DNA from: a virus
Strand: one strand, 5' to 3'
Length of the DNA stretch: 64,000 bases
Virus record (IMG/VR): IMGVR_UViG_3300035698_017497
Coordinates: 61,757 to 125,756 of that record
Positions 3,798-48,204 of the stretch are shown here, in pieces (position 1 is the stretch's first letter; each line of letters starts with the position of its first letter). The notes beneath the pieces are model-generated. The model searched no databases and was not told where the DNA came from. It worked only from the letters and a program-made list of their open reading frames with translations. The translations under genes were made by a program, and so were the position numbers.

Positions 3798-4215
3798 AAT
3801 AGCATCGTCTAGAGCTGAGGCTAAAAGGGGCAAAATCGCAAAACGATATCGTGATGAAGCTAAATGGAATGAATTTAATGAAGATCTTGAATCTTCCAGA
3901 ACTAGAAAGGGAGCAGTTGCAAATGATGCTATAGTACTTGGAGGCATTGGTGCTGGAATAGCGTCAGGAATTGGAACTATTGCTTTAATTAATAAAATTA
4001 GAAAAGGTAAAGTGCCTACAAGCATAACGCATGGCGCACTAGCAGGAATGGGTGCTGGCTTAGTCGGAGGTGTAATGGTATCAGATAGAGTTACTAAAAA
4101 TACTCCGTACGGGATAGCTTCAGATAAAGCTGTAAATAAGTACCGGAAATACCTTGAAGCCGAGTCTAGGCAAAAAAAGATTGATGAGATCAATCGATTA
4201 AAAAGCGAACTGTAA
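3748..4215 (+). CDS. Leader-family protein 3 (MSYEEIYTDAYNDELEKIA leader, two glycine-zipper-like segments)
   Basis: Shared leader; 'LGGIGAGIASGIG' and 'GALAGMGAGLVGG'. Confidence 0.75.
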   Translation: MSYEEIYTDAYNDELEKIASSRAEAKRGKIAKRYRDEAKWNEFNEDLESSRTRKGAVANDAIVLGGIGAGIASGIGTIALINKIRKGKVPTSITHGALAGMGAGLVGGVMVSDRVTKNTPYGIASDKAVNKYRKYLEAESRQKKIDEINRLKSEL

Positions 4216-4245
4216 TAGCCATATACATTTATGTACAAAAATATC

Positions 4246-4275
4246 AAGGCAGAGTTTATTCTCTGCCTTTTTTTT
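4246..4275 (+). terminator. Rho-independent terminator after the leader-family cluster
   Basis: AAGGCAGAG-tttatt-CTCTGCCTT followed by a T run. Confidence 0.85.
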
Positions 4276-4333
4276 AGCTATGGGGTGATTTATATTATAT
4301 TATAGTATATATCTAATCCGGAGAGCGTAAAGT

Positions 4334-5038
4334 ATGGCACAGACAGATGCTGAAAAAATATTAGAATGGCAGAAAACCAAAGATCCTCAACTGTTCTTCG
4401 ACATTGTTAAGCAATACAATCCGATGATCCACAAAACTGTTAATCAGTATAGGACTACCGGGCTGGCAAAGTCTACACTTAAGGCTAGGGCTCAGGCTGA
4501 GTTTTTAAATGCGATTGTATCGTATAGCCCCGAGTATAAAACTTTACCATCTACCCATATATGGAATCACCTTAGGAAGATTCAGCGCGCTGCCACTGAG
4601 TCTCTAACATCTGGGCGTATCCCTGAACATAGAAATCTTAAGATGGCAACATTTGCAACCGTTAAAGCGAATCTGCGCGACCATTTAGATAGAGAACCTA
4701 GCTCAGTGGAAGTAGCTGAAGAATTGAAATGGTCTCCAAAGGCGGTAGAGATGATGGAGCGAGAGGTCAATGATGAAGTCACTGCGTCTAATGCAGAGTT
4801 TTCATTTTACGGTAATTCGACACAATTTGAAAATAAGGATCTGGCAAATGTTGAAATATTATATCATAGCAATGTGTCTCAGCCTGATCGCGTTATACTC
4901 GAGCACACATTTGGGTTTGGCGGAAAGACAAGACTTAACAATAAAGAAATTGCTAAACAATTAAACACAAATGAGATGGCCATTACCAGGGCTAAGAGAA
5001 AGCTCAGCGATAAAATAAGAGACATGAGGAGTGTATAA
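4334..5038 (+). CDS. Phage sigma-70 family RNA polymerase sigma factor (FliA/SigB-like architecture)
   Basis: Region 2-like 'FLNAIVSYSPEYKTLPSTHIWNHLR', region 3 'LDREPSSVEVAEELKWS', region 4 HTH 'LNNKEIAKQLNTNEMAITRAKRK'. Confidence 0.8.
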   Translation: MAQTDAEKILEWQKTKDPQLFFDIVKQYNPMIHKTVNQYRTTGLAKSTLKARAQAEFLNAIVSYSPEYKTLPSTHIWNHLRKIQRAATESLTSGRIPEHRNLKMATFATVKANLRDHLDREPSSVEVAEELKWSPKAVEMMEREVNDEVTASNAEFSFYGNSTQFENKDLANVEILYHSNVSQPDRVILEHTFGFGGKTRLNNKEIAKQLNTNEMAITRAKRKLSDKIRDMRSV

Positions 5039-27900: not shown

Positions 27901-30438
27901 GTTGCTATTCCGTCATCATCCGGATTGCTCGGAATAAATATATACATCAATAAAGATCTTACTAATGATGAGCTTGACTTTTCATCATTAAAGAATATCC
28001 CAGACTTGACGACGTATATTGGAACCGCAGATCACCCAGTCAGAGTCATTGTTCCTAATGGAGACGAATCGTCAAATGTAAACCTTAGGCATGATGGAAA
28101 AACTGGAGGGGTGACTTTAACAAACTGCAGACTAGATGTTCCTAAACATACAATTATAGAGGGCATACATTTTGATGGAATAAAATCTGGAGACAGCGAA
28201 ATTGTATCAGTCAGGTCCGGCGTCAAGGTTTCAAACTGTATGTTTGAAAATATGCCTGACTCAGACGCTCAGGATGAGAATGTTGCAATAAGAATAGACT
28301 CAATGCCATTTGAATATATCTTTGCGTCATTAGCATCTCTTGATTATAAGATATTTTATGCAGGCGCAGGACATGTCAGGAATTGCGTGTTTAATAATGT
28401 GCAGGGCTATTGCGTAAATATTAACCAGTCTGTCGACTCTACGTTCAGGGATTACCTTAATGTAAATAATAATACTATGTATAATTGTAAGCATGGAGTT
28501 AAGGCTGAACCTGTAGACGACGCTTCATCTATGATGATTGTTCTAGCGTACAACAACGTCTTAAGCTTAATGTCTAAAACTTCATTTAGCGCAGGCAATA
28601 GACATACTCCAGCTTTGCTATGTAAAAACAATATAGACTGTTCTGATTCTGCAGATGACTTCCTTACGCATCCAGGATTCGAGTACTATGTTGACGACAC
28701 TAAGCTTCAGTCTCCTTACAATTTTACCAATGTCAACCCTGTGTTTAGAAATGTTGCTGAGAATGATTTTAATCCTCACCCGTGGTACGATACAGAGATG
28801 ATAGATAATAGCTGTAAGGATAACGATACGCTTGGACAGAGTCCCTTTAGCGATGACATAGCAGGACAAGAGCGTGGGGTCCTTAAAACTATTGGAGCTT
28901 TTGATTCCGATGATATAGTTGGGTACGCTGAGATCTTAGTAGGCGATATTGATCTTGAATCAACATCGTATGTGACTCAAGGCAGCTCGGAGATTAATAT
29001 TTATCTTAGGCAGCCTGTAGATATAGGCGGGAGCGTTTACGAACCAAACTACATACCCTCAATTAGTCAAACTTATCAGTTTATGAAGATATCGGAAGTT
29101 AACAATGCTCTAATTGATAATCCAAATATAAATATAGTTATACATGTTGAAGGTGGATTTAATTTTCCAGCATATAGCATTTTCCCAACTGACGACGCTA
29201 CATTTAACTTTTTTAATAGGCCAGACAGCACAGTTACTATAAAAACATACGAGCCCGAGCTGCTGACAAATGGAGCCGCTGGAATAGAATACCGTAGCTC
29301 ATTAATAGACAACCAGTCACTTGTAAAAAAAGTCTCTTTTGAACAGATTAAGATATTCCAGAGTAATGACATACTTCCAGTGGAAGTCTCTGAGTATATG
29401 ATACCTGAGCTTGATGATGTTGATGGATTAGAGTTTATAAATTCAATAGTTCAATTTTATACAGGCATAACGCCTACAACTGTTGTGACTCCAGTTTTCA
29501 TAACAAACTCTTTGCTGATATGCGAAAGCCCAACCGCTACGATTTATTTAACAGGATCAGAGGGCGGGAGTTTTGGGATGGTAAATAGTTTAGTAATATT
29601 CTATTCTGCGCTCACTCCAGAAATAAATTACTCAGATAAAGTTGCAGCGTTTTATGTTCGAAAAGTTAATATGTATAATTACGGTGACGGAGACGTGACT
29701 GTCCCGGTATCTTCTAAGTATGACCAGGTAGTAGTAGATGTGAATCCAATGCTAAGAACTAGTATAGAGCTTGGTGACAATACTAGATTACTGATAGATG
29801 AAGACATGAGCCAGTTTCCGAACTCAACACTGGTAGACTCTGGTGTTAATTCGTACTACGATGGTGGCGATATTGATATTGCCGGCAATCAAAGAATATT
29901 TCAAAGTAGGACAATTGATATCGGTCCATTCGAAGCAGAGAATCCTGTAATATTATTTAGTGATAAAAATATTTTAAAAATGTTTCAGGACAAATTGATT
30001 AGAGATGGGGAAGTAATTTACTCACCGTTGCTAGGCTCAAGATATTTAGATATGCATGAGAGAACTGACGGACTGTACGACACTGTAATTGAACAGAACA
30101 GCGCATGGGACGAATATCTTAGAGGATCAAAAATCATCATACAGCTTAATGATAATATTTCTAATTATGAGATTATAACAGACAAAACTCATATAGAGGT
30201 AGGATCCTTCGAAGCATACTATGATATAGGCGAAAGAACTATTGCGTTTAAGAAAACTGGAGAGGTATTAAAAACACTTTTAAAAGCTCCGTACAATAAT
30301 GGTAGGTATGTATATTCTTATAGTGCATTCAGTCGCCAGTTAGTAATTTATATTAATAATACATATTACAAAGGCTCTTCAGGAGTTAGGAATAAAATTT
30401 CCAAACATAAGTTTGGTGGAAATCCAGTTGTAGCATAA
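21952..30438 (+). CDS. Giant (2828 aa) multi-module parallel beta-helix tail spike/adhesin
   Basis: Beta-helix strands (IANNII, ITHNTI, VNNNTM), repeated 'DIxG...GAx' caps and about five ~400-aa modules. Confidence 0.7.
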   Translation: MFKNPTLNNISILPIHNSNFCSFENLSEQIYFSVGSAGDMFDHSGSDNSHVYDGVISFDINQIHQSVGIGDKITMDNGDIYYIKGIVDSRSWKVGVVDGSRPSDSTDLSVVSVEKAYNGIGDAIDSIERIITNDFATSVDLQDERTIVNIACYDIDDSVTKGISFSNQITMGAAGYIRIFNPHVEGVECIRSQKHNGHLESGKYNLTLNTDSVGGTSIGISLSDYAEIDGMYIIDSSENSDYTISLSSGSKILRSYIDATIAKSNACLNSTDGTTVPGIVAYNTIDSSNYTVVLNDLALSTSDYYETWFLNNTIINAVTGINCGHADSIIARCLLQSCSTASVAHVDTSNIYDTTTGDTTVPASLGNVQSETIPFQTDYILNDVCGSALTATPTEPFEVEYANLKTDIFGNLMSLPGRGSHRYVSRRIYGVGESSADIKTGSPTVDISSGVLTFSTPQTHADVTSGYIVTLSGVDNVILHEQISSDSWLVAKHGYADKYAPADGTSITVTSITPETTSLYTAKETYIELVNVHTLDIRLVINCVSGVSNGLLDFYGSAIIPDVYKYSPDQYSEIRKDIDREFIITGGSNYSDIIWISSFANLRFTNLIFANCNTAITITSTPNIKITGCEFRDCNSDAIRDYGAVTVPCGGVLIANNIIRDCKGYAINIVDSDSPAVNPYSSYHITHNTIAKCKNGIRIAVKNLGRDSYTIMNNIIVDCGDSAIDADMSPLSYGAYSGNYSDDESILQLGELNSALENQVKFSQRVDTPYVVDTAYEATNMSVKPILNKEKFDFSTGILEKNRNDVIYCAGAYAFTIENHRFMSVRKDPLTASYSTGDVELKNSILTFDTTPSTELVIGDKVTFTDEAVSVYLASKINAYSWVVVDNTGNLYSADIEPSGTTTISEVSDDLKNAIDTDFASEFVSPASLDSKITIAIASSSVAYSHDGVEIPALWNTTSENRLVIKTPVDTFTECNSAHRHDNTTDAPLGEIRITNGETYGILIEASFVDIEGLNITRDASNISALEGIRLSDTAAYCCVTKNLIHNITDGIVQEYSVSTVMGAIIDMNTTLSIDDEAFQISDGTAEFNTAIDTGGNAYTLNAKAKLANSTSINTVGYSLVQIDDSQAISCIFDGTIIGYSSGYKLPAMYNTNCIESVTAVTQNADINNPTTGKFHRYDFDHTYAATPVYSNEATDIAGNYIKEFSKGSDQPDEDTIEMLYSYGYQTDFLSGGSSNGTISGGILTFSDVTNFDADPRFGAGHVVKMSGGDEVYLQRRVKPFYNTQWVVKDLHGETPDDLSIEAVSSIEYAVYSDIVAANNGRVFDSYHANTAHSLSRKLSTGHSQPFHPRNARMVVIAIVYPSDKISGNYGYPFQTTEAVLGAGSMTTKDHYFKLTTSYDYIWMSNYNVRYLNDSIGGIYSNNNILGNTVTPADGTVVKVAADYTVVEGLKMIYSSIQIANASECKIDGCLVYDTISATNMLEPCIANYYSGRWYQHAGLTQKFYEVSTISSIWNTVYGNSTNNGGVVSMDVDDVYYSIIDPANTSNIVEVEAMPTSSNYNIGFKYSESVTPTTAEFNVDYVDDEYAKITYDFNTVDGTPVSTYKEILIRLKFGQPIRLRLAVKADAYNGNGYFSLDKSGSYNLIAQIKVNGEWFTISDDAILAISDNDFEVKTTNSGFNEFDFASNVVATTFVTTFLKPGTTYNLGSMEKAYISSCLAMAGYYGCIMSGGRDIVYNCTAKLPTASAAFVYHYKDKLVNCYGEGISGLNTSFYPAIEYEATIHHCIASDSWLDSYIDSDNTLQCFGDYVNYNALYGNFVHGFNQRDQFLNSSGVDLSRDPDYPIQRSINGSEFDDGRNWPMGSVSQNRTNAVIIKVSVGDTSDDFGSGGTCTLKVAPITDIVQHTGYTAVTFDTPQTDVLLTAGMKVEISGWGNTTLPIYLSKKISNTVWECHTVSGLGDAGASGEFSGTVLSIKPMYDNLSDVAIPSSSGLLGINIYINKDLTNDELDFSSLKNIPDLTTYIGTADHPVRVIVPNGDESSNVNLRHDGKTGGVTLTNCRLDVPKHTIIEGIHFDGIKSGDSEIVSVRSGVKVSNCMFENMPDSDAQDENVAIRIDSMPFEYIFASLASLDYKIFYAGAGHVRNCVFNNVQGYCVNINQSVDSTFRDYLNVNNNTMYNCKHGVKAEPVDDASSMMIVLAYNNVLSLMSKTSFSAGNRHTPALLCKNNIDCSDSADDFLTHPGFEYYVDDTKLQSPYNFTNVNPVFRNVAENDFNPHPWYDTEMIDNSCKDNDTLGQSPFSDDIAGQERGVLKTIGAFDSDDIVGYAEILVGDIDLESTSYVTQGSSEINIYLRQPVDIGGSVYEPNYIPSISQTYQFMKISEVNNALIDNPNINIVIHVEGGFNFPAYSIFPTDDATFNFFNRPDSTVTIKTYEPELLTNGAAGIEYRSSLIDNQSLVKKVSFEQIKIFQSNDILPVEVSEYMIPELDDVDGLEFINSIVQFYTGITPTTVVTPVFITNSLLICESPTATIYLTGSEGGSFGMVNSLVIFYSALTPEINYSDKVAAFYVRKVNMYNYGDGDVTVPVSSKYDQVVVDVNPMLRTSIELGDNTRLLIDEDMSQFPNSTLVDSGVNSYYDGGDIDIAGNQRIFQSRTIDIGPFEAENPVILFSDKNILKMFQDKLIRDGEVIYSPLLGSRYLDMHERTDGLYDTVIEQNSAWDEYLRGSKIIIQLNDNISNYEIITDKTHIEVGSFEAYYDIGERTIAFKKTGEVLKTLLKAPYNNGRYVYSYSAFSRQLVIYINNTYYKGSSGVRNKISKHKFGGNPVVA

Positions 30439-30449
30439 AGGAGAGTTCG

Positions 30450-33400
30450 GTGAAGTTTATCAATAATAATATCGGAGATAGTGTTCAACGATCTATTGTA
30501 GAATTTAAAGATACCACCGGGCATACATCATCTCTGTCGGCGTCTGGATACGCTACCGATAAAATTAAATGGGGATCCTCATTCTTACACAAAATAAAAG
30601 GTGATACAGTATCAAATGGCAACATGCTGTATGTTGACTACATAGACCATAACCAGTATATTTTATCTGAATACCAGAATGTCCCATATTTTGACACTTT
30701 TATATCTAAAAATAAAAGCGTAAAGATGTCTAGTTTAGCTAAAGAGGCGGATCGCAAAACTTACAATGCTGCAGCAGATGTAAGTAATTTAGATGGTGCG
30801 GTTAGGTATGAAAATTCAGAAGGTTGGGCATGGCATTCTGATGATATATATATAGAAACTGAAGCTGGGCACGACAGGATAGTTCAGCATAAATTGCATC
30901 ACAAGTATAAGACTTCTCCTGCTACATATTCGGTTATATTACCGCAACACTTAGAGGAAATATACTCCGTAGAAGCAGGATATAGCGCAAGCAAAGCTGT
31001 GGTATACAACTCGATAGGGTCTTCATTCTACCCTGATTCTCCTTGGTTTTCTTACGAGTCTAGCTCTTTTAAGTCTACTGATGGATCAGCCTCCTTAATC
31101 TTAAGTGAGTTTATTCCTGAGGTACCTGTTGGCGGAGACTCTACTGACGTTATTGTGAACCTATCTATACAGCCACACGAATTTGAGTCGATGATATTTG
31201 CAGAACTGTCTCTTAAGTGGGAATACCAAAGCGACAACCTTCAAGACGTTTTAAATGGAAATCTGAAAACTCCAATAATATCGCAGTTTAACAATACGCT
31301 TATAAATTATACTAACTGTATTGCCAGAACATCAAATGAAGACGATCATACTGGAATAATACATATAGCGCAATACAAGATGGATGGTAAGATTTATTTA
31401 CCAAAAACTAATATTAACTTTATATCAACAGCTTCTACCGCAGGTGTCCTAAGCTTGCCAAAGGCTGAGAAGTTAATGTTTAGAATGGCGCAAGGCACAG
31501 GCGAGGGCGGATCTAGAAATCTTGGAAGTTCTGGCTTTTTCCAAAATGGCATCAATATGTTTATAGAAAGACATAAGTGTTATTCTGCGACTACAACCGT
31601 TCATCCGTATCACAAGACTGCTCCAATTGCTAATGGAGATATTGTAGATTACACCCTAGTGACTAGCGAAGGCCTTGCTCCTTCTGGCGTATTTCAAAGC
31701 AGATATCTTAAAATAACAGCAAGGCAAAGTACTGTAGATGATTTAGGAAAATACCTTGATAAGCAAGAGTATAATACTGATATAATACAAAGCCTAAAAT
31801 TTTCTTTCAATGATAATGTTTACAATGTTGGTGATGAATATTGGAATCTTGGAGACATTACATGGAACAGGATTGACAGAGATATATCACATGTTATGTA
31901 TCATGATACCCAAAGATATCCTTGGGGTTCAAGAGATAGATGGGGAGCTCCACTATCGTATCCTTACGTAACTAGATTATTGCTTGAATTCGATTCTACT
32001 ATCGGGCTTAATAACGAAAAGTATGATAAATTTGTAATAGCTGGGGTGGGCGAGCAGAGTCAGGATGTATCTATATCTAGCCCGGCTACTATAATGTATT
32101 TGACCAATAACGGAGCTTCAAATGCAGATATAGAATGGGAAGAGAGAACTATAGATACTGACATAATGGATATTACATCCGTTGGAGAACACGAATTATT
32201 TAGACCAATGATACAGATGCCTAGGGTTCAGGGGTTTATTAAAATACTTAGAAAGAGTAACCTTGCAGCACATAAGGCTAAGAAGTTGCGCAACGGCAAG
32301 ATTGAAGTTTATTATGAGATTGAAATACCATGGAGCTGCGGTGGAACTTATATAAAGAGCGGAAGTAACGGTCAAGAATACCAGGGACAGATATTATATA
32401 CTTCTGAGTACATGAATGCCGGATCAGAAGAAAAAGACGCATACGGACTAAAGACTATATATAACGAGCGCCCTTTGTATACTGGTGCTGAGCTTGTAAA
32501 AAATCCAGAGATATTTTACAACGCATGGGGCCACGACGTAAGTACTTACCCAGACAGATACAGCGATTTGGGAGATACCCCACTGGCAATGGTTCATGTT
32601 ATGGCGCAGGCCTCTGCTGTTGCTATAGCTCCCAACGTAACAGATCCTGGACTTCTAACTGGAGCCCCTGAGGGCACCGAACTTGAGCTTGTAACTATTA
32701 CCCCTGGAAGTGTTGACCACGTTGCTTTTGACGACACCGAGACTCTTGATGGATATGCTCATGACTATGTTTTTTGTATTACTCCAGACCATAGGCACTA
32801 CCTTACCAGCGATAGTAGCGATGAGATGCGTGATGGTAAGCCGGCGCTAGTAGGAGAATTTGATTTAAGTACATTGAACCAAGTGGACCAAGTAGGCGTG
32901 AAAAATCATGCAGCCATTCCTGACACTAAAAGATGGATAAAGACTTCTGCATCTGTTCAGATGATAGCTAAAAAAATGACACATATAGGAGATTTTCTGG
33001 ATGACGGCGAACCTTATTTTAGCCATCTTCCTGATAGAAATTCGGTATCAACCAATGTTTGGTTTGAATCGCAAACGACACCATTTCCAATATTGCCAGA
33101 TACTGATACTGACCCAGACACTACAAATAAGTTTCTTGAGAATGGGAAAAATTCAGGAACTGCAATGTATAGAATAGAGGGAGTTGAAGCTCTTCCTATA
33201 CTCGAGGGGTGGAATACTGACACGCTTAAATGGGACAGGTTATCGGAACAGAAGTTTGATATGTTCCAGAGCCTTGGAGATTCTCTGCTTGATGGAGTGT
33301 TTTTACAAGAAGGCTCAAGTGCTGGTGTTGGAATTATAAAGCAATATTTATTAAGATATAAAGATCCTGACGAGACAGCAACTCAAAGATTTTTATTTCC

Positions 33401-34019
33401 TGGGGATGTTGAGACTTTCGATGATGTTAGAAGCTTTAAGGATATAGTCCTGAACGGGAATGTTAATGACCTGCACTTGTTGGATACTTACACCAACAGG
33501 ATGTATCCAATAATTTTAATAACTGGATCAAATGGGACTGAAAAATTAGGACCAACACCCAACGTTTATCACGAGGTTATGGTATATATTAGAAGCCTAC
33601 ACCACGATGAGATAGAAATAGTTCCAAACGTTGATGTTCCTACATCGTGGGCTGGAGAAAGATATTCACTTGTTTCAAAAAATCATAATGATAAATACGC
33701 AACAACTCTACACTCTGTGTCTGATTATAGGTCGGTTAATATAACTGAATATACTGATATTTTATCTAAAATGTATAGCAGCTTCAGGGTTAGGTCTAAT
33801 ATTGCAAGCGACAATGTGATAGCAGTATCCCGCGATGTAGACAGTGAGACTATGGTGTTCCGGGATACGAGCGAAACTTTCGGGTCAGGAATTATTGATG
33901 ACAATATGCCAGCAAAGGGCTCTTTCGCTACGGGATACGAGTATTTTCCTGAAAATATAGAAATTGACGCAGTAGTGACCATGTTGGCTGTAAATAATTT
34001 TCGTATGATATCCAAGTAA
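30450..34019 (+). CDS. Large hypothetical virion protein
   Basis: 1189-aa ORF, GTG start with AAGGAG RBS. Confidence 0.6.
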   Translation: MKFINNNIGDSVQRSIVEFKDTTGHTSSLSASGYATDKIKWGSSFLHKIKGDTVSNGNMLYVDYIDHNQYILSEYQNVPYFDTFISKNKSVKMSSLAKEADRKTYNAAADVSNLDGAVRYENSEGWAWHSDDIYIETEAGHDRIVQHKLHHKYKTSPATYSVILPQHLEEIYSVEAGYSASKAVVYNSIGSSFYPDSPWFSYESSSFKSTDGSASLILSEFIPEVPVGGDSTDVIVNLSIQPHEFESMIFAELSLKWEYQSDNLQDVLNGNLKTPIISQFNNTLINYTNCIARTSNEDDHTGIIHIAQYKMDGKIYLPKTNINFISTASTAGVLSLPKAEKLMFRMAQGTGEGGSRNLGSSGFFQNGINMFIERHKCYSATTTVHPYHKTAPIANGDIVDYTLVTSEGLAPSGVFQSRYLKITARQSTVDDLGKYLDKQEYNTDIIQSLKFSFNDNVYNVGDEYWNLGDITWNRIDRDISHVMYHDTQRYPWGSRDRWGAPLSYPYVTRLLLEFDSTIGLNNEKYDKFVIAGVGEQSQDVSISSPATIMYLTNNGASNADIEWEERTIDTDIMDITSVGEHELFRPMIQMPRVQGFIKILRKSNLAAHKAKKLRNGKIEVYYEIEIPWSCGGTYIKSGSNGQEYQGQILYTSEYMNAGSEEKDAYGLKTIYNERPLYTGAELVKNPEIFYNAWGHDVSTYPDRYSDLGDTPLAMVHVMAQASAVAIAPNVTDPGLLTGAPEGTELELVTITPGSVDHVAFDDTETLDGYAHDYVFCITPDHRHYLTSDSSDEMRDGKPALVGEFDLSTLNQVDQVGVKNHAAIPDTKRWIKTSASVQMIAKKMTHIGDFLDDGEPYFSHLPDRNSVSTNVWFESQTTPFPILPDTDTDPDTTNKFLENGKNSGTAMYRIEGVEALPILEGWNTDTLKWDRLSEQKFDMFQSLGDSLLDGVFLQEGSSAGVGIIKQYLLRYKDPDETATQRFLFPGDVETFDDVRSFKDIVLNGNVNDLHLLDTYTNRMYPIILITGSNGTEKLGPTPNVYHEVMVYIRSLHHDEIEIVPNVDVPTSWAGERYSLVSKNHNDKYATTLHSVSDYRSVNITEYTDILSKMYSSFRVRSNIASDNVIAVSRDVDSETMVFRDTSETFGSGIIDDNMPAKGSFATGYEYFPENIEIDAVVTMLAVNNFRMISK

Positions 34020-35243: not shown

Positions 35244-36167
35244 ATGAGACATGTTAATGTTCAGGTTGGAATAAAGGAAAGGATGAATGATATCCTTGGG
35301 TATCATACTGATGACGATCCAGACGGATTGACTTCATGGTCTATACAAAAAATTATAAACGATAACCTGAAGAGAATTGGCAAAGGACTGACGTTTAACA
35401 ACTCACGTGGATGCGTTCTGAGTGGAATGTCTATTACCGGCACTACTGGAGACGTAACCATAGGATCTGGCGTAGGAGTGACTAAGAGTGGTAATTTTAT
35501 AGCACTTGACAATTCTATAATATCAGGACTCAATATTGCTAGTTACCCTGGAGCTGTAGGCGAGAATGTATATGTTTTAATGAGATACAAGAAAGAGAAG
35601 TCAACAACTGGACACTCTGCAAATATACAAAATGGTAGCGCTGAGCTGATCGAGTATGACGAGTACACTCATACGGTAGCATCGCCAGATGGAACATATT
35701 TCATTAGATGGGAAACTGATCCTGTTATAGACGATGATGATCTTTTGGTTGGAATAATGTCATATGATGGTTCAGACTACACTGGCGCTATGAATTACCC
35801 GGCACTTGGAACCTTAGACCCTGGACCCATGTCATATGGTGATGCTGAATTTACTGGCACCGTAACGATCGAGACTCTTATCGTTAATACGTTGACATCA
35901 TTTATAAACAGCCTCTCTACTAACAATTTTACCGTTACTGGAACAACAACATTAGGATCTACACTTAACGCTAATGGAAACAATTACTTAAACGGAAATA
36001 CCCAGATTAATGGTAATCTTTTAATAAATAATAACATACTGATACCACACTTGGGAGGGTTTGTTACACCATGGGTAGGCGACATTGTTATCGTTGACAA
36101 CGCCGGAGCTACTCATACCATAGTAATGTATCAGGGTTTAATCAGAAGCCATACCGTTGTTCCGTAA
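35244..36167 (+). CDS. Short fibre-like protein, paralog 1
   Basis: N-terminus MRHVNVQVGIKERMNDILG and C-terminus GDIVIVDNAGATHT are shared with the next ORF. Confidence 0.65.
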   Translation: MRHVNVQVGIKERMNDILGYHTDDDPDGLTSWSIQKIINDNLKRIGKGLTFNNSRGCVLSGMSITGTTGDVTIGSGVGVTKSGNFIALDNSIISGLNIASYPGAVGENVYVLMRYKKEKSTTGHSANIQNGSAELIEYDEYTHTVASPDGTYFIRWETDPVIDDDDLLVGIMSYDGSDYTGAMNYPALGTLDPGPMSYGDAEFTGTVTIETLIVNTLTSFINSLSTNNFTVTGTTTLGSTLNANGNNYLNGNTQINGNLLINNNILIPHLGGFVTPWVGDIVIVDNAGATHTIVMYQGLIRSHTVVP

Positions 36168-36187: not shown

Positions 36188-37054
36188 ATGAAACATGTTA
36201 ATACTCAAATAGGCATCAAAGAGAGAATGAACGATATTCTAGGGTCTCATTCTGACGATACACCATTGGCATTGACCTCGTGGTCTATACAAGCTGCCAT
36301 GCTTGAGAACCTGAAGCGTCTAGGTCAGGCTTTAACTTTTGACAATCCTGCCGGTGGAGTTCTTGGCAAGGCTGAGTTTGTGCATTCTAGTGACGAATTT
36401 AAGGTTAACGTAGTCGGGGCATTTTTCACAAAGGGTGGAAATTTAATATATCCAAATGCTAACGTTGATACAGGATTAGTAACATCGAGTTTTCCTGCCG
36501 GTTCTGGTGGTACGGACTACATAGTCGTGCAATACGTTGAAGCCAAGAGGGGCGATAGTCATAATTCTAATATCCAAAACGAGGCCGGTGTTGAGGGCGT
36601 AGAATATGATGAGTACATTAGAACATTGTCAGGTGGAGATGCCGATGCCTCGGCAATATTTAGATGGCAGAGCACTAGTCCGACTATAGAGGATAATGAA
36701 GCTATAGTGGCTGAAATTACACAAATAGGATCTACCGGTGTTTTTACAATAGTGACTAATAATATGTCAGCAGCATTTAGCGATGTCGATATTTCCGGAG
36801 ATTTAAGTGTTGATGGAGATACAACTGTCGGTGGAGACTCCAGCATTGCAGGCAAGGTATCGGTAGATGGAGGACAAGATTTGCTGGGCTTTTTGGCCCT
36901 TAACGAAACTGATGGTATTAAAATTGGAGATGTAGCTGGAAGCACAGGATATAGCTATGGATTAAATGGTGATATTGTAATAGAAGATAATGCTGGTGTA
37001 ACTCACACGCTTACATTTAAAAGCGGAATCCTTACATGGCATGCAACAAGTTAA
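36188..37054 (+). CDS. Short fibre-like protein, paralog 2
   Basis: N-terminus MKHVNTQIGIKERMNDILG, 'ISGDLSVDGDTTVGG' beta repeats, C-terminus GDIVIEDNAGVTHT. Confidence 0.65.
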   Translation: MKHVNTQIGIKERMNDILGSHSDDTPLALTSWSIQAAMLENLKRLGQALTFDNPAGGVLGKAEFVHSSDEFKVNVVGAFFTKGGNLIYPNANVDTGLVTSSFPAGSGGTDYIVVQYVEAKRGDSHNSNIQNEAGVEGVEYDEYIRTLSGGDADASAIFRWQSTSPTIEDNEAIVAEITQIGSTGVFTIVTNNMSAAFSDVDISGDLSVDGDTTVGGDSSIAGKVSVDGGQDLLGFLALNETDGIKIGDVAGSTGYSYGLNGDIVIEDNAGVTHTLTFKSGILTWHATS

Positions 37055-40767: not shown

Positions 40768-40797
40768 AAAAAAAAGCGCCAGGAAAACCTGGCACTT
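40768..40797 (-). terminator. Rho-independent terminator ending the Ubl operon
   Basis: Minus strand AGTGCCAGG-tttt-CCTGGCGCT followed by a T run. Confidence 0.85.
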
Positions 40798-40824: not shown

Positions 40825-41313
40825 TTAAGCTGCGTTAACAGGTTTGTTAAAAACAACAGAAACCTCTTTGTTTGAATTTGCAACAAGGTGATCTGACCAT
40901 CGTGCAGGCATTCCATTCATTGAGATTTTGTACGTATCGATAATACCAGCCTGTGCTCCATTAAAGAGTTTGCTGACAACATCGTTGCTACATGAATCAA
41001 AAACCTGCTTAATTGTCATACCGGAAACCTCAGGCACTGGAACTCTTACCGGGGCACATCCTGAATTCACAAACAGGATGGTGTAAAAAGAATCTTCAGC
41101 TGACGCAGCGTTAACCTTTTTGTTTCCAACGACAACCGAAAATCCATCATGCAGAATGCAATATACAGAATCTGGTTTTATTCCGTTGACAGTTACCGCA
41201 TTGTCGGAAAATGAGTACCCCTCTTTTACGAGAAGCTCGCTAAGTGTTGCGCCTGTACGAAGTGTTACGTTAGCGATTCCATGACCGATTCTGGCTACTT
41301 TTACTGTAATCAT
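40825..41313 (-). CDS. Tandem ubiquitin-like (beta-grasp, MoaD/ThiS-like) protein
   Basis: Domain 1 'MITVKV...GATLSELL...VTVNG...LHDGFSVVV' ends NKKVNAA (aa 70). Domain 2 'GMTIKQVF...ISMNG...VSVVF' ends NKPVNAA. AGGAG RBS; adjacent to an E1 gene. Confidence 0.75.
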   Translation of the reverse strand: MITVKVARIGHGIANVTLRTGATLSELLVKEGYSFSDNAVTVNGIKPDSVYCILHDGFSVVVGNKKVNAASAEDSFYTILFVNSGCAPVRVPVPEVSGMTIKQVFDSCSNDVVSKLFNGAQAGIIDTYKISMNGMPARWSDHLVANSNKEVSVVFNKPVNAA

Positions 41314-42124: not shown

Positions 42125-43087
42125 TTAAAATCCTCCTTGAGGGTTGTCAAAAGAACCATCTAGAAATGTATTGTCGTCCTGAGCATAAACCATTTCATCA
42201 AAATGAGAATTTTTATTTTCTCTTTTTGACATATTTCTATGATTCATTTTTACGCCACGGTTATCGATTACGGAATGATGTCCGTTTTTTGAGTGGTGAC
42301 CGTAATTGCGTTGGAAGTTATCGGGTGTCGGCCTATCATCTTGAATCAGCTGACTTTGGGAGTTACTGTAAACTTCCTGAACTGGAGGAATTGCTGCAAG
42401 TATTCTTTTTTTAGAAAGATACTTTACAACGTTTGTTATCTTTGGATTTAGAAAATATCCATCCCTAGCAACATCACAGACTTGATTAATTGTTTTGATC
42501 TTATCCATAGTAGACAAATCAGTATTATTAGCAAGTTCTACTAAGGCTCCATTTAGCAACTTTCCGTTACTTAACTCTTCCTCCTGGGTAAGTCTTACCA
42601 AATATGGCATCTCGTATCTAATGCTATTTTTAACATCATACAAATGGATAGTATGCTCCATTCTTTTGTTAAAAACAGCTGAGATATAGTACTCACCATT
42701 AGCGGATTCTCTCAGGAAACGATTGGTAGTGGCATTATCTGTACCAGAGAAATATGCGCTCATGTTAACATGTGAATGAGCCCATCCCCTGATATTTTCA
42801 GTCTCGTCAGCTCTACCTCTATTAAAAAGGTAAAGGAACAGTTCAGTGTCAGCATAATCATCCAACTCGCAATATGCAGCTTGCATAATTTTCTGCTTTG
42901 GATAAAATATATTATACACTTCGTATTCGTTAACAGCCCCGGGGACGCGTTGGACAAACAGCATGAATATAACTTCCATGTCGTGTTGTGATATCATCTC
43001 CCTTATCTTCTGGTCCGTGCTTCCCGTAAAATAAAGCGACGGGAAGGTTGACTCATCATAGCATTTAGCTGTGACTTTTGTAGACAT
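42125..43087 (-). CDS. JAB/MPN+ (JAMM) metallo-isopeptidase
   Basis: 'GWAHSHVNMSAYFSGTD' matches HxH-x7-S-x2-D; upstream Glu in 'DMEV'; start placed at ATG 43087, next to the upstream stop. Confidence 0.88.
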   Translation of the reverse strand: MSTKVTAKCYDESTFPSLYFTGSTDQKIREMISQHDMEVIFMLFVQRVPGAVNEYEVYNIFYPKQKIMQAAYCELDDYADTELFLYLFNRGRADETENIRGWAHSHVNMSAYFSGTDNATTNRFLRESANGEYYISAVFNKRMEHTIHLYDVKNSIRYEMPYLVRLTQEEELSNGKLLNGALVELANNTDLSTMDKIKTINQVCDVARDGYFLNPKITNVVKYLSKKRILAAIPPVQEVYSNSQSQLIQDDRPTPDNFQRNYGHHSKNGHHSVIDNRGVKMNHRNMSKRENKNSHFDEMVYAQDDNTFLDGSFDNPQGGF

Positions 43088-43088
43088 G

Positions 43089-44498
43089 TTACTCACCACT
43101 TTCTACAAGAGGGAATCTTGTCGTTATTTTGCCAAACGTGTCACTGAGATTTGGATGCTGTATCATATGTATTATTATAGATAGCACACCGTCCATATTC
43201 TCATCACGAATAGCATTCATAAGATCGTTTGCATATCCACCGAAACATGTAGAAGTCTTTACTCCACCGTCACGGCCGACAGTGTTTCTGGTATGCGGAG
43301 AATCTATCGGATTTTCTGCACCTGACTCAATTATCCAATCACTTATATTATGGATGGATATGTGAGAAGTGCTAACAGCTGGATTGGCACTGTTCAGCAT
43401 TTGGATGGGAAGTTTTATGATAAGCTTACCAATATTATACACGTTGCCATTAACGCCATCAGCATGTATGTCGTTTGTAACGATACACACGTAGTCGCCT
43501 TTTACCAACACCTTCTCAATCAAAGGATTGCGGTTACAGTATAACATAAGTGAAAACACGTTCCCCTTAGCAGTGTTCGATCTGTCAATCTGACCCGTAA
43601 GAGCTTGAATTTTATTTTGAGCTCTCAGAATATCATTACTAAGTTTGCTGATAGCAGCTTGGTACTCGTTTACGGCCTGAACCAAGTCATCCTCATTTGA
43701 CGGAGTTGCCAGAATTCCATGCTTGACTCTGACAAAGTCTTTTGCAAAACTTTCGATAGTGGCGCTCACTTCGATTTCGGTAGCCTCAGAATCTGGTCGC
43801 CTCCACATAAGATCGGGATTTGACGTAAGGTTGGATTCGTAATCACGAATTCTGTTATCCTTACGGCCATATTTCATCATACGATCTCTTGGTGGAATCT
43901 CAGGGTCTGGAGCTGGCGCCTGTGCTGGTCCAGGAATAACCTGATTTAACGGCCTGTCATTTCCGGTGAGTACGCCCATGGCAGCTTCATCTCTTTCTTC
44001 ATTTAGCCTATCGCCGTACACGAATCCGTCCTCTACGAGATCATCTTCTGTGGTCGTATCATTCTCGAAGAGCAATCTAGCCTCAGTTTCCTCATCATGC
44101 TGATTATCATTTTGCGCATCCTCTGTATTATCATGCGGCGCTGGGTCTGGTAACGCTACTTCATTTACCCTAACCATAAATGATATTGGTGATCCAGCGG
44201 ATACTATTGGGGATATTGTGGTATTGCCAATAGTTGCAAAAAAGTCCGAAAGATATTCTGATTTAAAGATGGTGTGTGCGATTAGTCTCATGCAGGTAAT
44301 GGCGTCATTTTCGACATTCTCCAACAGTCGTTCTTCGCCGCACCACGGTCTACCATCGTGCTCTATCAAGACTGTACTCCTTCCGCTGTCGGCTGGCGAT
44401 GTAAATGCATTAAAACCATCCATCAAAGCTGGATTCACCAATGTAACTAAATCACTGGCTTCGCGAGGAAGCTTGCTATTTCCTAAAACAAAACTCAT
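43089..44498 (-). CDS. Coiled-coil plus prokaryotic E2-like (UBC-fold) protein 2
   Basis: C-terminal 'SPHTRN...STCFGGY...NLSDTFG...FP' (PH...C-x-G); operonic with E1, JAB and Ubl; homologous to the next ORF. Confidence 0.6.
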   Translation of the reverse strand: MSFVLGNSKLPREASDLVTLVNPALMDGFNAFTSPADSGRSTVLIEHDGRPWCGEERLLENVENDAITCMRLIAHTIFKSEYLSDFFATIGNTTISPIVSAGSPISFMVRVNEVALPDPAPHDNTEDAQNDNQHDEETEARLLFENDTTTEDDLVEDGFVYGDRLNEERDEAAMGVLTGNDRPLNQVIPGPAQAPAPDPEIPPRDRMMKYGRKDNRIRDYESNLTSNPDLMWRRPDSEATEIEVSATIESFAKDFVRVKHGILATPSNEDDLVQAVNEYQAAISKLSNDILRAQNKIQALTGQIDRSNTAKGNVFSLMLYCNRNPLIEKVLVKGDYVCIVTNDIHADGVNGNVYNIGKLIIKLPIQMLNSANPAVSTSHISIHNISDWIIESGAENPIDSPHTRNTVGRDGGVKTSTCFGGYANDLMNAIRDENMDGVLSIIIHMIQHPNLSDTFGKITTRFPLVESGE

Positions 44499-44532: not shown

Positions 44533-46242
44533 TTATCTATGAAATGCAGCACGGAGACGATTAACTTCATTGTGAGTGTCTTCCAGTCCTGCGATATTAA
44601 ACGCACATCCGAGATTATTCTCTATCATAACCTCATCGCGGGTAACTCTAGGCCAACATTTTACCTTGCTTCCAGCCGCGTCATTGAAGTTTACTGAGCA
44701 CAAGTAATTAATGCACATCAATAGCGCACTTGAAATATCATATGCTGCAAGCGCTTCGCTTAGACCAATAGTCAATTCGCCTTCGCAAGGTCTACCCTCC
44801 CCGTTGACATGTGGAGCATGGGATCTTTTCCAGAAAGCGTCCACAACACGTGTAGTATTGTACATTCTTAAAGTATAAGTAGTCTTTCTGGCACTTTCTC
44901 CATACTTTACATTTAACCTTATGCAAAATGCGCCTATGTCAAACCAGGCATCTTCGCCAAGTTCAGTCACATTAGCATACAGATTCTTCGTGTAGGCTGT
45001 AACAGTTAGTAATGACATGCTACCATCAGTATTCATCTGCTTGTCCACATTGACCATATTAACCTTTTCGTGGTTCTGTATAGCCCTGATACTGATATCG
45101 ATATTGTCATTGCAAATCCCCTTAGAACTCAAAAGCATGATATCGCTTTTGACGGTACTGAGAGCTTGCTTTTTAGATATGATACGACTCATCAGTTCCT
45201 CTAGGTTGACAATGATAGTATCTAGCTCAGTCTTTTTACTTCTCAGGAGGGCTTCTGATTGATATTTTGCAACATCCTTAATCTCAGATTCAAATCTATC
45301 AATTGCCTCTTTGTAAATGCTTGTGTCAAACTCGAGCATTTGTTTATAGCTCATAGCTCTATCGAACCTTGGGATTAGCGTGTCAATAACAATGTCAACG
45401 GTGCTTGAATTGTTGTACAGAATAAATAGCGAGTCGTATATAGTCTCTATTGCAAGAGTTGCTCCAGTAATAGTATCTTTATATATTTTCTTAATATTTT
45501 TAACGTACTTGCTATTTATCCCAACTATAGGAGTTGATGTTCCGGCTGAAGAAATACCATTATACCTTGATGAATTTGCTCCGTTGATAGTAATTGAAGC
45601 GTGAAGTTCTTGAGAGTTTTTAGTTGCAGATCTTAAGTTGAACGTGTCTGTACTATCCCCTCCAGAGCTTGCCGAAAGAAGTGCCATTTCAGAAGACTGT
45701 TTCGTAAAAGCCTCAAGAGATTCTACGTTTACGAATCTTGTTAGGAATATCTTGTTAGAGATGTGGGCTAGGAGTTCAGTGGTTGACATAGACATATCTT
45801 GCCTCATCGATTCAACATCCTCAGTCGACATCATACCTCCAACTGCTATGGCTGAAAGAAAACTTGACATTCTTCCTAGAGTTGAATACAAATTTGTATC
45901 AGTAAATCCTTTAATCCACATGATTTTAGATTTAGGATGCCATAATTTTAAATCATTAAATTTATTTAAAACTCTAGCGGCTAAATTTATACGAACTGTC
46001 GGGGTCAAATGAGACTGCACAATAAGATCGACACCATTAGTGGCTAACATAATACCATTAGTCCCGATAAGTCCAGGGATCATTCCTGCAAGCTTGCCGT
46101 CTATATTGATATGCTTTATGCCAGAGCTCGAAACTGACCCGAATTCATTGATAATTTTTATAATCACCTCATTAATATCCTTAACTCCAGAACGATGCAT
46201 CATGTCTAAAATAAAGTATCTTCTAATTTTGTTAAAATTCAT
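44533..46242 (-). CDS. Coiled-coil plus prokaryotic E2-like (UBC-fold) protein 1
   Basis: 'HAPHVNGEGRPCEG' resembles the UBC 'HPNV...G-x-x-C' active site; later 'NFNDAAG...WP'; GGAG RBS. Confidence 0.7.
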   Translation of the reverse strand: MNFNKIRRYFILDMMHRSGVKDINEVIIKIINEFGSVSSSGIKHINIDGKLAGMIPGLIGTNGIMLATNGVDLIVQSHLTPTVRINLAARVLNKFNDLKLWHPKSKIMWIKGFTDTNLYSTLGRMSSFLSAIAVGGMMSTEDVESMRQDMSMSTTELLAHISNKIFLTRFVNVESLEAFTKQSSEMALLSASSGGDSTDTFNLRSATKNSQELHASITINGANSSRYNGISSAGTSTPIVGINSKYVKNIKKIYKDTITGATLAIETIYDSLFILYNNSSTVDIVIDTLIPRFDRAMSYKQMLEFDTSIYKEAIDRFESEIKDVAKYQSEALLRSKKTELDTIIVNLEELMSRIISKKQALSTVKSDIMLLSSKGICNDNIDISIRAIQNHEKVNMVNVDKQMNTDGSMSLLTVTAYTKNLYANVTELGEDAWFDIGAFCIRLNVKYGESARKTTYTLRMYNTTRVVDAFWKRSHAPHVNGEGRPCEGELTIGLSEALAAYDISSALLMCINYLCSVNFNDAAGSKVKCWPRVTRDEVMIENNLGCAFNIAGLEDTHNEVNRLRAAFHR

Positions 46243-46330: not shown

Positions 46331-46364
46331 AAAAGAGCCCTAACTATTTAAGTTAAGGCTTTTT
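46331..46364 (-). terminator. Probable terminator after the SNF2 gene
   Basis: Minus strand GCCTTAACT-taaat-AGTTAGGGC then TCTTTT; T runs on both strands, possibly bidirectional. Confidence 0.65.
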
Positions 46365-46386: not shown

Positions 46387-48204
46387 TTATTTATTAATTT
46401 CAGCAACCCTGGAAAGTACCGACAAATCAAATGATAGCTTCTCTTTAGCTTTGACTTTTTTCTGAATCATTTCTTCGATAGTATCTTGACAAACTATATC
46501 TATCGCAGTGACTTTTTTCATCTGACCGTTTCTGTGCTGCCTACCTATAGCTTGATCTCGCTCAACAAACGAATATGTATTCTCATAAAATATCATATAA
46601 TTTGAGTACTGCACGTTTTGGCCTACGCCAACCTTTTTAATAGATGCTACAAAGAATCTGTATTTAGGATCACGAAATTCTTGAACCTTGTCATATGCAT
46701 CATCTTTACTGCCGCATGTCAATACTGCATTTTCGCCATATTTTTTCTGCAAGCGCTTGGTTACAGACATTACACTATGACGAAATGCGCACCAGATTAT
46801 AATTTTGATATTTTTTGGAAAATCGTCAAGGCTTTTAACTAACACATCCTCTTTTTTGTTTTGCTCTAATACTATGGTGTTTGTTTTCTTAATCTCTTCA
46901 CCATTGGGCATCTTAACAATAACTTTATTTTTATAAAATCCAGAAGCGATTTGTCTAAGCTTTACGACTAGCACTAGTGAGTTCTCAACTTGAACTTCGT
47001 TGCTACATATAGTCCTATCACAATCCTTACTCATATCACAATTATCGCACATGTTATTTATATGAGCAGCAAGCTCTTCCTTCATATGATTATAAACAAC
47101 CATCTGTTTACTTCCGAGCTCAACATTAATCTGCTTGTATGTTAAATCAGGTATGTCTATACAATCTTCCTTCTTGAATGTTACGGCATACCTATTAATC
47201 ATTTTACCTACAGCGACTCTGGCTCCTTTGCGCTCAACCCATACATGCTTATTTTTATCAACTGCACGCATATAGTAATTTCTGAATGCGTAGTAGTTAG
47301 ATATAGGAAGAGTGTCAGCGCCCATGAATCGATAAGGCATATAGAATGACATTAAGTTATTGGAATGAAGCGTTCCTGTAGCTATGTATTTGTATTTAAC
47401 ATTGCCGAAATGATCGAGTATAGCTTCAGTTTGTTTAGAGTCTGGAGCCCCAACCCTGTGAGCCTCGTCAAGGATAACCATTTGAAAATAATCTTTTGGA
47501 ATGAAGCCTACAAAATGCCTCACTGACTCATACCCAATAATGTAGATATCATAATCGCGATTGAATTTGCCAATCTTATATTTTTTATTAATAATTTTAT
47601 CTGCACTCTCACTCCCATGCAGGATAACCCCTGAAAGATTGGGGACTTGAATATCCATCTCAGGGATAATGTTTTTTCTCAGTGGTGCTAGAGTTATTAT
47701 TAAGGCTTTCTTAACTTGCTTACGTCTTATTCTCTCGTCAATTGCCCACAGATACGGACCAGTTTTGCAAGTGCCTGGATCAGATAGCAGCGCAGCCTTA
47801 GATGAAAAAACCATCATGTTGTACATTATTTTCTGATGCGCGAGAGGATTGTACTCTCCGCTATAATCATAATCGAAATAGATTCCATTGTGGCTTCCGT
47901 CAGGATTCGCCACCAGGCCTTTTCGATATTGTTTCTTAATCTTTTCAAGCTTATCTAGCTCATTCATATGACTGTCGTTAAATGCCGCTATTTTAGCCGT
48001 TGCAGTTGGGGTCATTTTAATTTGCTTACCCTTAGCTGCTCTAAAAATGTTGAGACATCCATCGAGAGGAACAAATACCCTAAATCTCCTTTTGTCAAGA
48101 TATCCGTCAGTATACCCGGTTATCTTTTTTAAAAGATCCTCATTTGCACATTGAACTATAAGCTCCTCGGTATTTTCTGGATTCTCTGAAATTTTAACCA
48201 TCAT
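46387..48204 (-). CDS. SNF2-family (superfamily 2) helicase/ATPase
   Basis: Motif I 'DPGTCKT', II 'ILDEAH', III 'ATGT', V 'VGVGQN', VI 'QAIGRQHRNGQ'. Confidence 0.9.
   Translation of the reverse strand: MMVKISENPENTEELIVQCANEDLLKKITGYTDGYLDKRRFRVFVPLDGCLNIFRAAKGKQIKMTPTATAKIAAFNDSHMNELDKLEKIKKQYRKGLVANPDGSHNGIYFDYDYSGEYNPLAHQKIMYNMMVFSSKAALLSDPGTCKTGPYLWAIDERIRRKQVKKALIITLAPLRKNIIPEMDIQVPNLSGVILHGSESADKIINKKYKIGKFNRDYDIYIIGYESVRHFVGFIPKDYFQMVILDEAHRVGAPDSKQTEAILDHFGNVKYKYIATGTLHSNNLMSFYMPYRFMGADTLPISNYYAFRNYYMRAVDKNKHVWVERKGARVAVGKMINRYAVTFKKEDCIDIPDLTYKQINVELGSKQMVVYNHMKEELAAHINNMCDNCDMSKDCDRTICSNEVQVENSLVLVVKLRQIASGFYKNKVIVKMPNGEEIKKTNTIVLEQNKKEDVLVKSLDDFPKNIKIIIWCAFRHSVMSVTKRLQKKYGENAVLTCGSKDDAYDKVQEFRDPKYRFFVASIKKVGVGQNVQYSNYMIFYENTYSFVERDQAIGRQHRNGQMKKVTAIDIVCQDTIEEMIQKKVKAKEKLSFDLSVLSRVAEINK

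Follow-up and report, generated by a model that had tools for sequence, protein, structure and literature searches.

The 64,000-nucleotide stretch of viral DNA analysed here (hereafter the window, in whose numbering coordinates are given unless another contig is named) is part of a 125,756-base virus record, IMG/VR IMGVR_UViG_3300035698_017497, with an estimated completeness of about 70%, and its source is a large phage genome. The minus strand of the window carries an operon of five tightly spaced genes encoding, in this order, two paralogous proteins termed X1 and X2, a JAMM metallopeptidase, a ThiF-type E1 adenylating enzyme and finally a 162-residue protein, hereafter the tag, which appears to consist of two ubiquitin-like (Ubl) domains in tandem (Table 1). 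X2 overlaps the JAMM gene by 11 nucleotides (nt), 2 nt separate the JAMM and E1 genes and the E1 gene lies 65 nt upstream of the tag gene, an adjacency that recurs in two related contigs, L003 and L007. Both domains of the tag end in closely similar tails carrying Ala-Ala, and it is this arrangement, together with the enzymes encoded beside it, that is analysed below.

Table 1. Coordinates of the operon, of the parts of the tag gene and of the flanking features in the window (aa, amino acids; di-Ubl, two Ubl domains in tandem)
Feature	Position	Strand	Evidence or remark
X1, 569 aa; candidate E2/UBC-like C-terminal domain at 44533-45042 (PH...C.G motif, Cys486)	44533..46242	minus	
X2, 469 aa, paralogue of X1; divergent, putatively E2-like C-terminal domain at ~43089-43541	43089..44498	minus	
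JAMM/MPN+ metallopeptidase, 324 aa	42125..43099	minus	Pfam Prok-JAB, catalytic motif, Rpn11/CSN5 profile matches
ThiF-type E1 adenylating enzyme, 247 aa	41379..42122	minus	Pfam ThiF 1.1e-21
Di-Ubl tag gene (putative tandem beta-grasp precursor)	40825..41313	minus	162 aa, ATG start, TAA stop
Domain 1 (residues 1-70), SAMP2/ThiS-like beta-grasp	41104..41313	minus	alignment covers SAMP2 residues 3-60
Internal tail NKKVNAA (residues 64-70); putative JAMM cleavage site after A69 or A70	41104..41124	minus	codons read
Domain 2 (residues 71-162), larger, divergent, beta-grasp-like	40828..41103	minus	aligns to the second domain of relatives
C-terminal tail NKPVNAA (residues 156-162)	40828..40848	minus	stop immediately after, at 40825-40827
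GC-rich hairpin between convergent portal-like and di-Ubl genes	40778..40793	listed +	A-run on one side, T-rich stretch on the other
Terminator-like hairpin between SNF2 helicase gene and X1	46336..46360	minus	
SNF2-family helicase	46387..48204	minus	Pfam SNF2-rel_dom 4.6e-18; phrog_62 7e-85; same place in L003
Portal-like protein, 709 aa	38558..40687	plus	phrog_64 portal E 0.0018, weak; convergent with di-Ubl gene

Two matching tails in one protein

A first-pass annotation of this DNA had pointed to NKKVNAA at residue 70 and NKPVNAA at the stop codon, and translation of the open reading frame (ORF) places these motifs at residues 64-70 and 156-162. It had also remarked on the lack of Gly at either tail. 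Glycine occurs in the tag at positions 10, 12, 21, 32, 44, 57, 63, 85, 98, 119, 123 and 134; none falls within the last six residues of either tail, and both tails end in N-A-A in place of a reactive Gly. The domains are otherwise as divergent as had been claimed, with 14 of 62 aligned positions identical outside the tails and a negative global alignment score. When the residues of the protein were shuffled 2000 times, a pair of 7-mers identical at six or more of seven positions arose somewhere in 12 of the shuffles and a recurrence of the C-terminal 7-mer at that level in none of them (0/2000), which rules out chance as the origin of the repeated tail. VNAA is moreover found at these two tails alone in a six-frame translation of all 125,756 bases of the contig. 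The Ala-Ala codons differ between the tails, GCT GCG at one versus GCA GCT at the other, so that the repeat is not a fresh DNA duplication and a recent event of this kind was rejected as its source. The palindromic hexamer GTTAAC encodes Val-Asn in both tails (41110-41115 and 40834-40839) and is probably a by-product of these shared residues.

Relatives of the tag were collected by several routes. An exhaustive search of representative sequences with the tag returned five matches. Two of them, P0001 (43% identity, E 4.7e-32) and P0004 (E 1.8e-6), are genuine relatives over their full length; the remaining three, P0002, P0003 and P0005 (951-1975 aa), were dropped as unrelated repeat proteins on inspection. 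A profile search with the tag family gave 148 matches, of which the best 120 comprise 117 proteins of GG type (136-162 aa) and three of the type found in the window. A sister family of at least 117 phage proteins shares the two-tail design with GG tails, and GG is kept at the tails in 117/117 of the sister-family proteins among the matches listed. One tandem protein of 137 aa, found in a scan of viral contigs on contig L002, ends both of its domains in VPKVKGG; its domains are identical at 28/61 aligned positions, and it matches the window tag by BLASTP at E 2e-6. IMG/VR scans with the X1 domain and with the GG family returned the same two contigs only, and one metagenome scan a single contig, L007. 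No match was obtained in the INPHARED phage collection by DNA and protein searches with the module DNA, the tag and one GG relative, in word-based protein searches with the single tag and the C-terminal part of X1, in a viral-contig scan with E1 alone, or in GTDB genome contigs scanned with the GG family.

The fold assignment of the tag draws chiefly on these relatives. A profile of the window tag and three close relatives matched SAMP2 (5lda_B) over residues 1-60 with E 6.3e-4, a profile of the whole family matched it at E 4.7e-8 and reached its last residue, and SAMP2 is the best solved sequence relative of the tag family. Pfam ThiS was assigned at E ≤ 0.001 to 113 of 122 family members, and a hidden Markov model of the GG family aligned residues 2-57 of the window tag with E 3.5e-7, the database searched comprising four sequences. 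As a lead only, the ESM Atlas model of the tag has tandem SUMO-like and ubiquitin-like neighbours at template-modelling (TM) scores of 0.60 and 0.54, and these cover residues 1-155 of tandem Ubl proteins. The reading of the tag as a two-domain ubiquitin-like protein therefore stands.

Tails across the family

Tails were surveyed in 122 proteins, namely the best 120 of the 148 profile matches, one cluster member and the window tag itself. Conservation in homologues, on which the first-pass interpretation hinged, is borne out: the tail is kept at both sites, and the dipeptide of tail 1 equals that of tail 2 in 122/122, being GG/GG in 117, AA/AA in four (the window tag, P0004, its near-twin P0124 and P0007) and GA/GA in one (P0001). 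The residue preceding the dipeptide matches between the tails as well (N/N, S/S, S/S and K/K), P0001 being the exception with Y/H. In L003 and L007 the shared Ser is encoded by TCT or TCA at tail 1 versus AGT at tail 2, and this TCN/AGY difference counters gene conversion as the cause of the likeness. Since the codons differ both for these Ser residues and for the Ala residues of the window, the identity of the tails is kept by selection on the protein and not by copying of DNA. Two sites that stay the same while drifting between lineages follow the logic of a precursor, and not that of a fixed tag of two domains, as would be expected if the same enzymes read both of them.

Residues beyond the last tail are present in 121/122 proteins (K in 117, N in two, Q in one and DA in one), the window tag being the sole one to end exactly at the dipeptide, and these one or two extra residues imply processing. 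Domain 2 of the GG family opens with its first strand right after GG, without a linker. We propose that the GG tail retained by the sister family is the older form, from which the Ala tail was derived.

The position of the reactive residue may be placed in two registers. In the GG family the conserved Asp-Gly turn is followed by 12 residues up to the last Gly. SAMP2 has the same spacing, its 69-residue chain finishing the turn at residue 57 and aligning its final residue to that Gly; in the proteins of the window type the turn is followed by 13 residues up to the last Ala. In the first register the reactive residues may thus be A69 and A161 and the invariant last Ala a leaving residue, in which case all 122 proteins may carry an extension, P0001 may keep a reactive Gly and the contacts of the complex model described below may centre on the cut residue. 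In the second register the reactive residues may be A70 and A162, the tail being one residue longer, perhaps by way of the invariant Gly63; the invariant residue may then be the reactive one and the variable residue next to last, as in most known tags, and the extensions of P0004 and P0007 may be single residues as in the GG family. Under both registers the modifiers of the window, P0004, P0124 and P0007 are predicted to end in Ala.

The peptidase and its modelled complex with the tag

The JAMM protein matches Pfam Prok-JAB with E 3.1e-4 and 21.0 bits, below the curated cut-off of 25, and its profile matches Rpn11 (2.1e-4) and CSN5. A catalytic Glu and the HxH-x7-S-xx-D motif are present, and the residues concerned, E42, H108, H110, S118 and D121, are invariant in 3/3 aligned proteins. 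The C-terminus of the window enzyme reads P-Q-G-G-F, that is, Gly-Gly plus one residue (42125-42142, minus strand), and aligns over P-Q-Y-G-A-A inside the longer peptidase of L003 (L003 ~6100-6130); this ending could be due to chance or could be a tail-like element of the enzyme.

A complex of JAMM residues 1-185 with the whole precursor was modelled, each partner with its own alignment. The model reached an ipSAE of 0.76 (0.76, 0.76 and 0.78 in the separate runs) versus 0.09 for the best of three controls, the score mark applied being one reached by 58 of 80 solved complexes and by 2 of 110 mismatched pairs. Contacts agreed between runs to at least 93%, and the predicted local distance difference test (pLDDT) of the partner was at least 84. 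On the precursor side the modelled interface comprises domain 1, residues 61-73, i.e. the internal tail and three residues beyond it, and residues 76, 78, 90-94 and 107 of domain 2; on the JAMM side it comprises residues 40-46, 108, 110-114 and 116-121, which include the catalytic Glu and the zinc motif. Modelled JAMM:precursor pairs include 121:69, 120:69, 120:70, 44:69 and 124:69. The model thus places the internal tail, and not the C-terminal one, across the catalytic residues of JAMM, and it supports binding of the internal tail of the precursor by the peptidase.

The E1 enzyme and two candidate E2-like paralogues

The best profile match of the E1 is the active adenylation domain of Uba1 (1.6e-10), followed by PaaA, UBA5, UBA7, MoeB and ThiF, and its GxGxxG motif and Cys183 are invariant in 3/3 aligned E1s. 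Its best PADLOC matches are Cap2-type E1-E2 models (1.2e-13), in their adenylation core only, and BilD of the same collection is matched at 4.7e-8 over profile positions 211-335 of 453 only.

E2 enzymes have an HPN-Cys core, the catalytic Cys lying a few residues past the HPN-like motif. The C-terminal domains of X1 and X2 share a P-H pair, a C-x-G eight residues on and then a P, all invariant in 5/5 sequences, and a profile of the X1 domain met residues 70-125 of UBE2D2 at E 1.3. The Atlas model of the X1 domain has UEV and RWD neighbours at TM-scores of 0.42-0.43, and an AlphaFold2 model made from five sequences reached a pLDDT of 68 and a predicted TM-score of 0.69. A Foldseek search of the PDB with the X1 domain returned a best E of 0.096 and none at or below 0.001, 42 of the 48 rows listed being entries with an E2. 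Comparison with 48,161 chains by VIA-align gave a best Z of 4.2 (root-mean-square deviation 3.3 Å over 80 aligned residues); the 18 best rows all contain an E2 or E2-like chain, every Z lying under the level that the tool treats as trustworthy. Pfam and PADLOC scans of the X1 domain gave no match even at E 10, and X2 has no family match in Pfam, PADLOC or PHROG. From these models and motifs, weak one by one but consistent in direction, we regard an E2-like nature of the two C-terminal domains as probable, though not established. The BFVD neighbours of the X1 domain, with a best E of 8.5e-4, lie in unnamed viral proteins of 420-540 aa, a sign that proteins of the X type may be common among uncultured phages; entries near the domain include A0A516LAI7, A0A516M3P8 and A0A516ML27.

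Genomic setting

Gene neighbourhoods were read in the window, L002, L003 and L007. In L003 the order is helicase, X1, X2, JAMM, E1 and tag, the last convergent with a portal-like gene, and in L007 it is a JAMM fragment, E1 and tag, again convergent with a portal-like gene; the portal-like homologues concerned are 708-709 aa long. In L002 the tag, an X-type protein and JAMM stand together, with E1 1.3 kb upstream beside another beta-grasp-like gene. This third beta-grasp-like gene of L002 (3665-4033) encodes 122 aa and precedes E1 (4035-4715); its product has a tag-like N-terminus, lacks a GG tail, carries an acidic C-terminal extension and may act as an adaptor of E1 or as a partner that is not conjugated.

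The hairpin between the convergent portal-like and di-Ubl genes is likely a two-way terminator, and the one between the helicase gene and X1 possibly marks the upstream limit of the module. Beyond the module the minus strand encodes the SNF2 helicase, a DNA polymerase exonuclease-like protein and a primase/helicase. The plus strand carries the portal-like gene and very large ORFs of the size of tail-fibre genes. ORFs of 2828 aa (21952-30438) and 1189 aa (30450-34019) lie upstream of tail-fibre-like genes. Two adjacent genes at 35244-36167 and 36188-37054 (307 and 288 aa) have about 30 nearly identical N-terminal residues and then diverge, and look like tail-fibre or receptor-binding paralogues; a similar N-terminus is found at 11278-12126 of L003.

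Comparison with known systems

Polyubiquitin precursors consist of head-to-tail units, each ending in a reactive tail and freed by a dedicated peptidase. The tag proteins resemble them in that both domains end in the same tail in 122/122, and in that the GG family has no linker between its domains and one extra residue at the end. They depart from them in that the two units differ (14/62 identical positions in the window, 28/61 in L002) and in that the predicted processing enzyme is a JAMM. Bacterial operons were already noted in 2006 to contain tandem ubiquitin-like repeats "reminiscent of poly-ubiquitin" (PMC1779556).

SAMPs are described in PMC4895103 as archaeal protein tags that are activated by a single E1, removed by JAMM and served by no conserved E2 or E3. 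Sampylation (SAMP2, the E1 UbaA and the JAMM desampylases) shares with the module a ThiS/MoaD-type tag, a single-domain ThiF/MoeB-type E1 and a JAMM; the module differs in being phage-borne, in fusing two unlike tags, in ending them in Ala instead of Gly-Gly and in adding two candidate E2-like paralogues. Sequence and gene set thus bring the module nearest to sampylation, and its design brings it nearest to polyubiquitin.

The Bil systems (BilABCD, types I and II) resemble the module in their gene set of Ubl, E2-like, JAB and E1, in their two- and three-domain tags and in pre-processing of the tag by the JAB, which removes residues beyond the reactive residue (10.1101/2023.09.26.559546). The Bil E1 described in the same source has an inactive and an active adenylation domain and a CYS domain, and the Gly of the Bil tag is said there to be universally conserved. 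Here, by contrast, the E1 is a bare one-domain ThiF protein of 247 aa and the window tails lack Gly; the module is flanked by portal-like and replication genes in a virus record and does not belong to a bacterial defence island; and internal processing of Bil tags is not reported. For an E1-type enzyme that acts on Ala as well as Gly at the C-terminus a single precedent came to light, Cap2 of CBASS, whose action a JAB, Cap3, reverses. The statement of the first-pass annotation that Cap2 accepts both endings agrees with PMC10449767, in which Gly or Ala is given as the last residue of Cap2 substrates and replacement of Gly by Ala reduced conjugation without abolishing it. Unlike the module, the Cap2 substrate is a nucleotidyltransferase (CD-NTase) and not a beta-grasp tag, and Cap2 is an E1-E2 fusion. 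The tail proteins I and K of phages lambda and T1 likewise combine a phage beta-grasp protein with a JAB in a virion module (PMC1779556); they lack an E1, and the beta-grasp domain is followed by another domain and not by a second tag.

An operon combining a phage-borne E1, a JAMM and a tandem tag was not found described in the literature searched, and the supplementary tables on Bil and Bub, which lay outside that search, may list Ala tails.

A proposed tagging module and its alternatives

The reading that we favour, with slightly better than even confidence, is that the genes from 46242 to 40825 (minus strand) form a phage-borne, SAMP-like protein-tagging module and that their 162-aa product gives rise, in the manner of polyubiquitin, to two unlike Ala-ended modifiers. 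JAMM would bind domain 1 and cut the internal tail after A69 or A70, giving modifiers of about 70 and 92 aa, both with the same kind of Ala-ended tail, and in the relatives the same enzyme would also trim the one or two residues beyond the last tail. The ThiF-type E1 would then adenylate the exposed Ala carboxylate, and the tag would be transferred to target lysines either directly, as in archaeal sampylation, or by way of the Cys in the candidate E2-like domains that X1 and X2 carry. The first-pass annotation had likewise proposed a polyprotein cut by the JAB into two Ala-terminated modifiers. Its precursor logic is strengthened by the paired tails, the extensions and the complex model; the cleavage itself we infer.

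Several points weigh against this reading. What the sequences show directly is the pair of tails, how these are conserved and co-vary, the set of genes with its synteny and the intact catalytic motifs; the cutting of the precursor, the adenylation of Ala and the conjugation, along with transfer and targets, are inferred. The non-GG branch comprises five proteins, two of them near-identical, so that the co-variation rests on about two independent changes. On its own the window tag has no match in Pfam, PHROG or PADLOC, and its single-sequence AlphaFold2 model is poor (pLDDT 41.5). A JAMM1-SAMP2 complex has been solved (5lda), and the pass of our complex model may therefore reflect likeness to it; the model may also favour domain 1 merely as the more SAMP2-like of the two domains. 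The cut, too, may fall after either A69 or A70. The E1, as a bare 247-aa ThiF domain, compares in size with the E1s of sulfur carriers, among them MoeB and ThiF, and the E2 assignment of X1 and X2 is weak, given the Foldseek and VIA-align values above (E 0.096 and Z 4.2) and the lack of a Pfam or PADLOC match. Finally, PMC11601603 treats the bacterial Bil and Bub tags that are composed of two or three beta-grasp domains as whole multi-domain units and not as precursors.

This last point leads to an unlikely competitor, in which the protein is an uncleaved two-domain modifier, like ISG15, BilA or Bub, with only the C-terminal tail activated and the internal tail serving as a linker whose form is kept for folding or for a non-cleaving contact with JAMM or E1. 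Two- and three-domain tags are indeed common in bacteria, making up 7% and 53% of the set in PMC11601603, where they were found as whole units, and the window tag already ends at its tail, without extension, so that its activation would need no processing. A mere linker accounts poorly, however, for two tails that change in step in 122/122 proteins, match in the preceding residue and remain identical as protein despite their codons, and in the GG family nothing separates GG from the first strand of domain 2. The complex model, too, sets the internal and not the C-terminal tail across the catalytic residues.

We give still less weight to a sulfur-carrier system of the ThiS/ThiF, MoaD/MoeB or CysO/Mec kind, in which the E1 would convert the tail to a thiocarboxylate for phage-directed thiolation, JAMM would merely mature the carrier and proteins would stay untagged. 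ThiS is the best Pfam family among the relatives (113/122), the single 247-aa ThiF domain of the E1 matches MoeB and ThiF, sulfur-assimilation clusters combining a JAB, an E1 and a ThiS-like protein are described in PMC1779556, and the module holds no firm E2. Yet Pfam, PADLOC and PHROG revealed no rhodanese, no cysteine desulfurase and no sulfur-acceptor enzyme in the module; SAMP2, the best solved relative, is a protein modifier, and the JAMM profile is nearest to Rpn11 and CSN5, which are isopeptide cutters. X1 and X2 moreover carry an E2-like motif and give weak matches to the E2 fold, and two different carriers in one precursor would have no clear use in sulfur transfer. Least probable of all, in our estimate, is a processing-only assembly factor resembling lambda tail protein I and the JAB of protein K (PMC1779556), whose beta-grasp domains would chaperone neighbouring virion proteins and then be cut off without activation or conjugation: the module adjoins portal-like and tail genes, and one family member matches Pfam Lambda_tail_I, with a profile match to tail tip assembly protein I at E 0.46, but these lambda-type matches are single and weak, and such a scheme has no role for the dedicated E1, with its intact nucleotide-binding motif, that stands beside the tag gene in 3/3 syntenic contigs.

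Implications for the biology of the phage

To our knowledge, bacterial and archaeal ubiquitin-like tagging has so far been described as anti-phage defence (Bil, CBASS Cap2) or as archaeal sampylation, and a tagging kit carried by a phage beside its virion genes would reverse this picture. Neither the production of two unlike tags with matching tails from one precursor nor a natural switch of the end of a beta-grasp tag from Gly-Gly to Ala was reported in the literature searched. If confirmed, Ala-ended tags of this design would broaden the chemistry known for such modifiers. If the E1 does activate Ala, the module would be a natural example of E1 and peptidase specificity co-evolving with the end of the tag, and it could provide a possible starting point for orthogonal protein-tagging tools.

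A broader scenario, which we put forward as speculative and rather doubtful, is that a clade of large phages possesses its own two-tag system and that one branch of it switched the reactive end from Gly to Ala along with its E1 and JAMM. The Ala-ended marks would then be unreadable or unremovable by Gly-specific enzymes of the host, and the phage JAMM would in turn be blind to host tags, the whole amounting to a private code that arose from an arms race with systems such as Bil. The first-pass suggestion of an orthogonal tag that GG-specific host peptidases may not remove is equally speculative. In such a clade the pair of E2-like paralogues may serve the pair of tags, and these would be written onto virion or host proteins during infection.

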